From an uncultured Propionivibrio sp. (GTDB taxonomy: Bacteria > Pseudomonadota > Gammaproteobacteria > Burkholderiales > Rhodocyclaceae): 25,439 nucleotides of DNA. A program made the translations under genes and the position numbers. Below, one piece after another: positions 1-21,342 of this stretch; within the stretch, counting starts at the first letter, position 1, and each line of letters opens with the position of its first letter. Location of the stretch: positions 1 through 25,439 of the forward strand of contig CAZFSH010000005.1 of the NCBI GenBank assembly GCA_964521935.1. The letters are read 5' to 3'. The notes under the pieces were generated by a model. The model saw nothing but the letters and a program-made list of their open reading frames with translations, had not been told where the DNA came from and ran no database searches.

Positions 1-1472
1 CAGGATTCGTGGGCAAAAAAATGCGCAAAGTTGCGTGCCACCTCAAACATGTCACGCTGGCCGTTAAACACCATGAAGGCCCCGGCTGTGGGCAGGTCTT
101 CAAAGCCGAGGCGGCGATGGAATTCGTGAGCGGCCAGGCAAATGCCGGACGGGCCGGAAATCTGCACCGCCTGGACATCGCTGGCAGCGCCACAATCGGC
201 TAGCACTTGCGCGACGCTGACGCCGTAATCGTATTCGTAAATGCCGGGGCGGGCGCAATCACCGGATACCGAAAGCAGTTTGCTCCCCGCCGATTGCGCC
301 GTGCCGTGCTGTGCATAGGCGGCCCCGCCATCGTGGGCGATCAGGCAGGCGGCGGCGAGGGTTTCGACGTTATTGACCGTCGTTGGCTGATTGAGGTAAC
401 CGGACACGACGGGGAAGGGCGGGCGAATGCGCGGTCGGCCGGGCTTGCCTTCGAGCGACTCGATCAAGGCGGACTCTTCGCCACACACATAAGCGCCCGC
501 GCCGAGGTGAATCTCAATATCGAAACTCAAGCTGCTGCCGAGAATGTTTGCGCCAAGCAAACCTTCGTTGCGCCGTCTCACAGCGACTGACTTTAGGTGG
601 TCGAGCAGGTAGCGATATTCGCCGCGCAAATAGAGCAAGCCGCGGCTAGCACCGATGGCATGGGCGGCTATGGTCATGCCTTCCAGCACCAGATCGGCAT
701 AGCGGGTGAGCAAAACGCGGTCTTTGAAGGTGCCCGGCTCGCCTTCGTCGGCATTGCAGACAACGAAATGGTGAGCGCCTTCTGCGGCTCGGCAGGCGCG
801 CCATTTTTGCGCAGTGGAAAAGCCGGCGCCGCCGCGACCGCGCAGCTTGGCGATCTCGATTTCATTGAGCAAGTCATCCGGCGTCCGGCGTAGTGCGGCG
901 GCCAATGCGGCGCCGGGGGCGAGCGTGTTACCGAGTAGCAAGCCGCTGCGCTGGATGTTGTCGTGAATGGCAAACCAGTCGGCCGGCCACTGCGCGATGG
1001 GGGTTTGCGAACGAATCAGTTCGGCCATCTGGTCGATACGCGCGGCATCCAGCCGAGTGATCGCGCGGCCGTTGACCAAGGCCGCCGGCCCTTGGTCGCA
1101 CATGCCGGTGCAGGATGTCGTGCTCACGCAGACCAAGCCATCTTCCGAGACTTTGCCAGCTTCCAGCCACAGCGACTTGCAGAGCTGTTCGACCAAGGCA
1201 GCGTTGCCGGCCATCTGGTCGGTAATGTTGTTGCTGAACAGTACGCGGTATCGGCCGGCCGGTTGTACGTGCAGAAAGCTGTAAAACTCGGCTGTCGCTT
1301 CAACTTCTGCGCGCGAAAGGCGCAAGGTCTGGGCAACGTGGTTAAGCACGGGAGGCGGCAACCATCCGCCGAGCTCATCCAGCTCTTGGAGTTCGATGAG
1401 TATCTGCAGCAAGTGGCTGGCATCGTGCTGATGCCGACGCAAAATAAGGTCAAGCGCAGTGGTCGCGATCAT
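1..1472 (-). CDS. hoxF: NAD(H)-dependent (group 3d) hydrogenase diaphorase subunit HoxF (NuoE+NuoF-like fusion), 3' end outside the window
   Basis: Not in the ORF track because it has no stop in the window. Hand translation from ATG 1472 is open to the window edge: MIATTALDLILRRH...FYSF...CTGMCDQGP...LRGRGGAGFSTAQKW...VCNADEGEPGTFKDR...GAGAYVCGEESALIESLEGK...NNVET...ISGPSG...FFAHESC. Confidence 0.88.
   Translation of the reverse strand, partial: MIATTALDLILRRHQHDASHLLQILIELQELDELGGWLPPPVLNHVAQTLRLSRAEVEATAEFYSFLHVQPAGRYRVLFSNNITDQMAGNAALVEQLCKSLWLEAGKVSEDGLVCVSTTSCTGMCDQGPAALVNGRAITRLDAARIDQMAELIRSQTPIAQWPADWFAIHDNIQRSGLLLGNTLAPGAALAAALRRTPDDLLNEIEIAKLRGRGGAGFSTAQKWRACRAAEGAHHFVVCNADEGEPGTFKDRVLLTRYADLVLEGMTIAAHAIGASRGLLYLRGEYRYLLDHLKSVAVRRRNEGLLGANILGSSLSFDIEIHLGAGAYVCGEESALIESLEGKPGRPRIRPPFPVVSGYLNQPTTVNNVETLAAACLIAHDGGAAYAQHGTAQSAGSKLLSVSGDCARPGIYEYDYGVSVAQVLADCGAASDVQAVQISGPSGICLAAHEFHRRLGFEDLPTAGAFMVFNGQRDMFEVARNFAHFFAHES
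569..594 (-). repeat. Dispersed 26-bp motif, copy 1 (AAAGTCAGTCGCTGTGAGACGGCGCA on - strand), inside hoxF
   Basis: 25/26 identical to the copy at 4872-4897 and 24/26 to the copy at 14182-14207. Confidence 0.9.
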
Positions 1473-1478
1473 GGGCAC

Positions 1479-1520
1479 ATGCTAGAGCAAGAAAATAGCT
1501 TGCAGTTTGCGTTGCATCAA
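1479..1520 (-). promoter_or_regulatory. FNR/CRP-family box (TTGAT-GCAA-CGCAA, 1520-1507) plus -10 TAGCAT (1484-1479) for hoxF
   Basis: 8/10 match to TTGAT-N4-ATCAA. The centre lies 41.5 nt upstream of the hoxF ATG, and the -10 hexamer sits at -12..-7 relative to that ATG. Confidence 0.65.
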
Positions 1521-20240: not shown

Positions 20241-20250
20241 AAGTTCACCT

Positions 20251-21342
20251 ATGACGCGCGCCTTTAATTTCAGCGCCGGACCGGCGGCGCTGCCCGAGGA
20301 AGTCTTGCGTCAGGCTGCAGACGAAATGCTTGACTGGCATGGCTCGGGTATGTCGGTGATGGAAATGAGTCACCGGGGTAAAGAGTTCATGAGCATCGCG
20401 GAGGCGGCCGAGCGTGACCTGCGCGAGTTGCTGGCTGTGCCCGCCAACTACAAAATTCTGTTTATGCAGGGCGGGGCGATTGCCGCCAATGCCATTATTC
20501 CGCTGAACTTGTTGGGTGATAAGGATGAAGCCGATTATGTGATTACCGGCTCATGGTCGGCCAAATCGTTCAAGGAAGCCAAGAAGTACTGCACGCCCTA
20601 TATTTCGGGCGGCACGCTCGCGGGTCCCTATGGCGCCGTGCCACAGCAGCTGACTTTTTCCGCTGATCCGGCTTACCTGTTTATTTGCACCAACGAAACC
20701 ATTGACGGGGTCGAATACAACGAATTGCCCGACCTCGCTGCCATGGGGCGCGACGATTTGCCCTTGGTGGCCGATGTGTCCTCGCACATTTTGTCCCGGG
20801 TGATCGATGTGTCGCGTTATGGCCTGATTTTTGGTGGTGCGCAAAAAAATATCGGCCCCGCTGGTTTGACGCTGATGATCGTGCGCGATGATTTGCTTGA
20901 TCGTGCTTTGCCGATATGCCCGTCAGCGTTCGAGTTCAAGACCGTGGCGGCGAATAATTCGATGTACAACACCCCGCCTACCTATGGTATTTACATTGCG
21001 GGCTTGGTGTTTCAATGGCTCAAGCGTCAAGGTGGTCTGGCCGCTATCGAGGCTCAAAACATCGCCAAGGCTGAGCTGCTGTACCAGCGTATTGACGCCA
21101 ATGAGTTTTATGAAAATCGGGTGGAAAAACCCTATCGCTCGCGCATGAACGTACCATTTTTCCTGCGTGACGAGTCCTTGAATGAGGCGTTTTTAGCGGA
21201 CGCCAAAGAGGCTGGTCTACTGCAGCTCAAAGGGCATAAATCGGTGGGTGGTATGCGCGCTTCGATCTACAACGCGATGCCCCTCGCCGGTGTGCAGGCC
21301 TTAGTCGATTACATGACGGAGTTTGAACGCACTCATGGCTAA
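20251..21342 (+). CDS. serC: Phosphoserine aminotransferase
   Basis: [24 protein letters not shown]-lysine, [24 protein letters not shown] at 20251. Confidence 0.97.
20632..20657 (-). repeat. Dispersed 26-bp motif, copy 5 (AAAGTCAGCTGCTGTGGCACGGCGCC on - strand), inside serC
   Basis: 22/26 identical to copy 2; all 18 invariant positions are conserved. Confidence 0.82.

Follow-up and report, generated by a model that had tools for sequence, protein, structure and literature searches.

The 25,439-nt stretch of DNA analyzed here (the window) is contig C5 in the genome of an uncultured Propionivibrio species of the Rhodocyclaceae (hereafter G000), and it carries five dispersed copies of a non-palindromic word of about 26 nt, placed both in genes and in the spacers between them. 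The pattern AAANTCAGNNNCTGTGNNACGGCG, with 18 fixed positions, has exactly five matches in the window, at 571-594(-), 4872-4895(+), 9248-9271(+), 14182-14205(+) and 20634-20657(-), and the mean number of matches in 100 dinucleotide-preserving shuffles of the window was 0.00. All five lie where the initial annotation had placed them, its 26-bp coordinates being these matches plus two extra 3' bases. It was also right that the motif is neither palindromic nor tandem nor strand-polarized, and that GCCGTCT occurs on the reverse strand of copies 1 and 4 (...GTGAGACGGCG).

Gene context was taken from open reading frames (ORFs), Pfam and Rfam. Copy 1 (569..594, minus strand) falls within a hoxF-like gene (ORF 3-1478, minus strand), whose product has Nuo51 FMN and 2Fe-2S domains; it is read in sense and encodes the peptide L-K-S-V-A-V-R-R-R. 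Copy 2 (4872..4897, plus strand) sits at a convergent junction, 43 nt past the stop of ORF 3807-4829(+), where it overlaps the final codons of yhhN (4876-5562, minus strand) and directly follows a terminator-like inverted repeat. Copy 3 (9248..9273, plus strand), alone among the five in having C at position 4 and T at 11, occupies the convergent spacer that separates a Ser/Thr kinase-HDOD-GAF gene on the plus strand (6751-9207) from a CBS-domain gene on the minus strand (9325-9753). Copy 4 (14182..14207, plus strand) fills the spacer between a tRNA with a terminator hairpin (14013-14085) and the tmRNA gene (14216-14526), ending 9 nt ahead of the tmRNA match. Copy 5 (20632..20657, minus strand) is antisense within a serC-like class-V aminotransferase gene (20167-21342, plus strand), in which it corresponds to the peptide G-A-V-P-Q-Q-L-T-F in a variable loop. 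Flanking segments of 70 nt show nothing in common among the five copies, and Rfam returned no hits on the window beyond the one tRNA and the tmRNA.

The five copies belong to a single 26-nt family of about 500 members in G000 (2.74 Mb in 351 contigs, 83% complete, 57.7% GC). The initial annotation had held that few copies elsewhere would speak against a genome-wide signal; the genome contains 322 exact matches to AAANTCAGNNNCTGTGNNACGGCG, and 454, 501 and 525 when up to one, two or three mismatches are allowed, while the reversed pattern used as a control has none. Exact copies are divided evenly between the strands (166 forward, 156 reverse). Perfect copies outnumber those with one mismatch (322 against 132) even though 54 one-off sequences are possible, an excess that Redfield et al. 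(2006; PMC1626085) used as a signature of the Pasteurellaceae uptake signal sequence (USS). The word, (A)AAAGTCAGYCGCTGTGRSACGGCGC, is sharply delimited at positions 0 and 25, with unconserved flanks: in a logo of 520 copies, written (A)AAAGTCAG-YCG-CTGTG-RS-ACGGCG-C, flanking information is at most 0.04 bit per position, except for a weak GC preference just upstream, and total information is about 40 bits, with some ascertainment bias. No covariation was found between motif positions (maximum mutual information 0.13 bit, for adjacent positions), and a hidden internal hairpin was rejected for this reason. Nor are the copies associated with insertion sequences (IS) or miniature inverted-repeat transposable elements (MITEs), an association with whose ends had been named as an argument against an uptake signal.

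Placement was scored for 493 copies matching the outer blocks of the pattern, against 2,487 genes predicted by a home-made codon-usage caller (91% coding; approximate). Of these copies, 284 (58%) are wholly within coding sequence (CDS), 155 (31%) are in spacers and 54 (11%) straddle a gene edge, compared with 89%, 8% and 3% of random positions. Copies in CDS run in either direction (152 sense, 132 antisense) and occupy five frames; the sixth, in which the word would contain TGA, is empty. Convergent spacers hold 2.2 copies per kb, 18 times the density in CDS (0.12), whereas tandem and divergent spacers have 0.72 and 0.62, respectively. Three copies run directly into an inverted 5' half of the word (..ACGGCGACTGACTTTT) and a T run, giving terminator-like hairpins with a 12-bp stem and a 9-nt loop (contigs C188:~255, C196:~5487 and C73:~9574). 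These composites recall the inverted pairs of DNA uptake sequences (DUS) found in Neisseria terminators. A copy is present in 16% of low-GC 3-kb segments of G000 against 57-68% of segments with a GC content of at least 0.58, and the copy-depleted, low-GC segments may be foreign DNA, a depletion that counts in favor of the uptake reading proposed below.

Along the chromosome the word is spread without direction. GC skew on the motif strand in G000 averages 0.003 +/- 0.003, where the typical absolute skew of 10-kb segments is 0.057. In the complete 3.15-Mb chromosome of Candidatus Desulfobacillus denitrificans (AP021857.1; G012), an apparent replichore polarity, with the first 100 listed places all on the plus strand, proved to be an artefact of listing and was rejected; in the subset listed in full (81 copies) the strands are interspersed round the whole circle, and no choice of origin gives a polarity score above 15/81, against a null mean of 16.7. 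There is no clustering of copies at the origin (ori) or terminus (ter) on this circle, and an 800-kb stretch of G080, a congener of G000, gives the same picture. Spacing in that stretch is close to random (coefficient of variation 0.87, against 0.99 +/- 0.08 for a Poisson process), which fits drive rather than selected spacing. Because the strands are unpolarized and copies occur throughout, readings as an ori- or ter-confined site or as a signal of the Chi or FtsK-orienting (KOPS) kind are refuted. Chi and KOPS, like the cyanobacterial HIP1, are over-represented oligomers that also occur inside genes, but the former are 5-8 nt long and skewed with replication and HIP1 is an 8-nt palindrome, whereas the present word is about 26 nt, unskewed and non-palindromic. 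The parS and matS sites are few, palindromic and restricted to one macrodomain, unlike the hundreds of non-palindromic copies over the whole G012 circle. The initial annotation's suggestion of a nucleoid or segregation site, for which it had looked to confinement near ori or ter or to one replichore strand, is thus disfavored by the lack of clustering, polarity and palindromy.

Comparison with relatives shows that the word is spelled differently from lineage to lineage. The exact G000 word has no copy in two genomes of the same genus, and its pattern has a single match in G012 (1988955-1988978). G080 has instead the dialect TTCCGC-AAGTCGGCGCTGG-YRRS-ACGGCG-ATT (126 copies in the 800 kb), and G012 has AAAGTCAG-N10-ACGGCG, also written AAAGTCAGT-N9-ACGGCG (214 plus-strand and 219 minus-strand copies, 433 in all); the spellings of G000, G080, G012/G098, G010 and G057 all differ. 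Many sites are nevertheless shared. Of 37 DNA alignments that cover a G000 copy, about 22 have the G080 word at the same place, and in protein alignments between the two genomes 39 of 52 CDS copies show no gap in the residues that the motif encodes, 20 of the 52 having the G080 dialect there. The encoded peptides change together, for example from KVSRC[GDE]TA in G000 to QVGAG[GDE]TA in G080, which indicates that a DNA-level pressure overrides protein sequence.

The hoxF site of copy 1 shows how such a copy forms. Thirty genomes (G000 and 29 orthologues) align there free of gaps. Motif-poor genomes encode LEAVLARRR, with a coding sequence that is already word-like, and in the same codons G080, G001, G090, G048 and G087 have motif-like spellings typical of their lineages, perfect in G080 and of the form GAGTCGGCGCTGGCG..ACGGCG in G001, G090 and G048, while G000 has its own word. 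The site has moved stepwise, by substitution, from the ancestral LEAVLARRR coding sequence to the dialect of each lineage. Taken together with the ungapped CDS sites, this shows that copies arise in place by base substitution, driven at the level of DNA, and excludes insertion of the MITE or REP (repetitive extragenic palindromic) type. At the serC site of copy 5, the nine alignable orthologues differ by at most seven residues in length across the variable loop, and none of the nine has the motif. At the G080 counterpart of G000 site s35, the motif copy is immediately preceded by 24 additional nt that resemble a degenerate tandem duplicate of the word (EVRLGEGA + QVGAGETA).

The word extends beyond the genus but is patchy in the family. 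In a scan of 101 sampled Rhodocyclaceae genomes from 89 genera with the loose core AAGTC-N12-ACGGCG, the core was abundant (25-715 copies; reversed controls at most 15) in 15 of the 101 genomes and 12 of the 89 genera, and at background elsewhere. In a crude single-gene ranking by GyrA identity, the eight genomes nearest G000 are all motif-rich, and the more distant rich lineages G012/G098, G026, G028, G058 and G087 are interleaved with poor ones. The five window copies are the local dialect of a word family common to a subset of Rhodocyclaceae genera. A hidden dialect was sought de novo as 12- and 14-mers in 400 kb of the close but motif-poor relative G036, and no comparable dispersed word was found, since the top k-mers all stem from one repetitive gene. 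That gene (G036 C9:381000-388000, the L352 region) is very large, with dozens of degenerate repeats encoding ..ALTT(D/A)Q.., and dominates the k-mer spectrum of its genome. The motif-poor G076, G096 and G032 have a few perfect copies of the G080 type (AAGTCGGCGCTGGCG..ACGGCG) on small contigs; in these metagenome-assembled genomes, either bin contamination or recent import from motif-rich neighbors could account for them.

We propose that the word is a DNA-uptake-sequence-like self tag spreading by molecular drive, a reading to which we assign a probability of about 0.5. In such a system, a sequence-specific component of the DNA uptake or transformation pathway would prefer fragments bearing the word, and imported fragments would replace resident alleles through homologous recombination. 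Substitutions that improve a near-match would then be over-transmitted, and the word would build up wherever the sequence tolerates it. If the specificity of the reader drifted, existing sites would follow and dialects would result. The argument for drive follows published molecular-drive models of USS. Some 500 sites, each of them dispensable on its own, have changed spelling together despite the cost to proteins, which transmission bias explains and weak per-site selection does not; we infer drive over site-by-site selection. In this reading, the reader would act at uptake and these bacteria would be naturally transformable.

The closest parallels are with the DUS of Neisseriaceae (AT-DUS, ATGCCGTCTGAA, and its dialects), which are read by the minor pilin ComP, and with the USS of Pasteurellaceae (hallmarks of both from PMC1626085 and bioRxiv 10.1101/2025.10.24.684340). 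Like the present word, DUS are found in Betaproteobacteria in hundreds of copies on both strands, lie in genes as well as at gene ends and terminators, avoid stop-codon frames and form lineage dialects, and ComP-family (PF16732) pilins occur in relatives of G000. The G000 word also contains TCAG and ACGGC, parts of the two halves (TTCAG and ACGGCAT) of the reverse-complemented DUS, ordered as they are there but separated by 10 nt; the comparison is post hoc, and the likeness of the TCAG half is lost in the G080 dialect (TCGG). In contrast to DUS, inverted pairs are rare here (the three composites), PF16732 pilins do not track the motif, and the hosts are environmental, mostly uncultured bacteria. 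The USS occurs as a Hin type (AAGTGCGGT) and an Apl type (ACAAGCGGT), each with about 20 nt of AT-rich flanks. Its extended footprint of about 30 nt, perfect-copy excess, two or more subclade dialects and coding copies in tolerant protein segments are documented (PMC1626085, PMC2817400), and the Rhodocyclaceae word resembles it in its extended footprint, in having more perfect than one-off copies, in its dialects and in its copies within coding regions. The sequences, however, are unrelated, and while the USS concentrates its information in a core of 9 nt between weak, phased flanks, almost every one of the 24-31 positions is strong here. Motif decay, which the uptake model predicts for lineages with decayed comEC or pilus genes, is reported for Haemophilus ducreyi. 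Thus, the initial annotation's idea of a new uptake dialect stands as far as the computable hallmarks of DUS and USS go (abundance, both strands, genes and spacers, substitution, perfect-copy excess and orthologous dialects), but not in length or density.

Several observations weigh against this interpretation, beginning with those dimensions. The word measures 24-31 nt, carries about 40 bits and occurs once per 5-7 kb, exceeding every known uptake sequence two- to threefold in length while being about fivefold less dense; DUS (10-12 nt) and USS have cores of 9-12 nt that recur about once per kb. No reader of the word was found. G000 has the uptake machinery (ComEC, DprA, ComEA, secretin, type IV pilus), which speaks for the uptake reading, with intact ComEC and DprA, a ComEA-like helix-hairpin-helix protein and three secretins. 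This machinery is near-universal, ComEC being found in 99 of the 101 family genomes and 10 of 14 control genomes, so that competence genes do not track the motif and ComEC was rejected as its correlate. PF16732 (ComP_DUS) pilins, found in four of five motif genomes in an initial scan, occur in 91 of the 101 family genomes irrespective of the motif, and none was found in G000 (83% complete), a tblastn search for an orthologue included. PilE-like pilins have the same architecture in motif-rich and motif-poor genomes, and the match of the G080 pilin to PDB sequences is confined to the pilin N-terminal helix; on these grounds ComP is disfavored as the reader. The look-up of competence genes suggested by the initial annotation yielded comEC, dprA and a comEA-like gene but no PF16732 pilin in G000 and none specific to the motif: uptake hardware exists, and nothing ties one specific reader to the word. 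Outside the window, two copies on G000 contig C342 (1483-1506 and 2517-2540, both plus strand) run antisense over the 5' ends of neighboring MSHA-type minor prepilin genes, whose leaders, before the cleavage site between G and F in GFTL(I/V)E, read RR(S/G)TAAEF, the motif-encoded peptide. Pilins are the obvious reader candidates, and two of about 500 copies could lie there by chance.

The remaining points against an uptake tag concern where the word is found. The 19-base G080 word is present in at least 120 viral or proviral contigs of IMG/VR (about 0.4 expected by chance), counts from which no density can be derived because the denominator is missing; the word is consequently not excluded from the phage and prophage DNA of these hosts. 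A scan of viral contigs with a 14-base pattern was uninformative, since chance alone gives hundreds of hits. Core-genome enrichment was also not seen and was rejected: motif-flanking regions have G080 hits in 17.8% of cases against 17.3% for random segments (800 kb), making the flanks no more conserved than random. Among the IMG/VR contigs with the G080 word (e.g., L236, L248, L260, L269, L284), some have it twice within 10 kb, and in L100, L164 and L167 a AAAGTCAG-type and an AAGTCGG-type copy lie within 60-500 bp of each other.

An alternative hypothesis, unlikely but the most serious of those considered, is that the word is the recognition site of a sequence-specific chromosomal DNA-binding protein involved in nucleoid organization, cohesion or self-marking for defense or repair, with each site selected and co-evolving with the protein. 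Information of about 40 bits over 24-31 conserved positions resembles a large protein footprint more than a pilin site, orthologous sites persist across genomes with only about 70% DNA identity, the G080 copies are spaced slightly more evenly than Poisson (P ~0.06), and no uptake receptor tracks the motif. However, each of some 500 dispensable sites would need selection able to rewrite 8-9 codons, placing, for example, Arg-Cys in about 100 proteins where relatives have Ala-Gly. Selected sites should also favor spacers, yet 58% are in CDS, and the word lacks the ori or ter clustering, polarity or palindromy of parS, matS, KOPS and Ter. Furthermore, as G036 does without any such word, the function could not be essential to the family.

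It is also conceivable, though improbable, that the word is a genome-wide self tag read inside the cell rather than at its surface, by a factor, either protein or nucleic acid guided, with a footprint of about 25 nt, and spread by biased gene conversion. If so, each change of reader would bring a coordinated respelling in hundreds of genes, and genomes would evolve in concert through a mechanism without described precedent.

Drive could instead act after uptake, the word being a non-polar signal for recombination or repair (strand exchange, nicking or mismatch correction towards the motif) that is fixed by biased gene conversion. Such a process predicts the same substitution, dialect and perfect-copy-excess signatures and would permit copies in phage DNA. 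It would also work without a receptor at the surface, in line with the fruitless search for a pilin linked to the motif. We regard it as quite doubtful: signals of the Chi type are short and oriented with replication, whereas this word is unpolarized, and no candidate gene was identified. To our knowledge, no enzyme with an activity of this kind recognizes a non-palindromic site of about 25 nt.

Finally, remnants or solo ends of mobile elements (REP sequences or REPINs with their RAYT transposases, MITEs such as Correia, or IS terminal repeats) are likewise short, abundant, dispersed and frequent at gene ends, and the high copy number, the three hairpin extensions and the 24-nt motif-like duplication at s35 would suit them, but elements of this kind form imperfect palindromes or have terminal inverted repeats at their ends, lie outside genes and spread by insertion, and this very improbable reading is already contradicted by a non-palindromic word with unconserved flanks that lies mostly within genes, in frame, at sites that are ungapped in 39 of 52 CDS and in all 30 hoxF genomes and that changed stepwise by substitution.

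Full-text literature searches found no paper containing the word or the G080 dialect, and none linking "DNA uptake sequence" to Rhodocyclales. A 2025 survey reported sequence-specific self-recognition of transforming DNA as documented only in Neisseriaceae and Pasteurellaceae (bioRxiv 10.1101/2025.10.24.684340). An uptake-sequence-like self tag in G000 and its relatives, if confirmed, would be a third system of uptake specificity, in environmental denitrifying and wastewater Rhodocyclaceae, with a far longer word and many dialects traceable site by site across genera. Neisseriaceae and Pasteurellaceae are both host-associated; uptake specificity would then not be peculiar to mucosal commensals. 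The system would also allow the molecular-drive theory of uptake sequences to be tested independently and would yield predictions of the routes that gene flow takes, and the barriers it meets, in engineered microbial communities, and adding the cognate word might make hard-to-manipulate bacteria transformable. Should the word not be an uptake signal, the case would be stranger still, as a DNA-level force has rewritten 8-9 codons in hundreds of proteins.

Three features of the window stand apart from the word itself. The tRNA gene upstream of copy 4 is 100% identical to that of G080 over 76 nt. The adjacent tmRNA matches the betaproteobacterial model RF01850 with 209 bits and also the permuted-tmRNA model RF04321 with 161 bits. 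The plus-strand gene at 6751-9207 encodes a single 818-amino-acid protein that joins a Ser/Thr kinase, an HDOD domain and a C-terminal GAF domain, an unusual signaling fusion.

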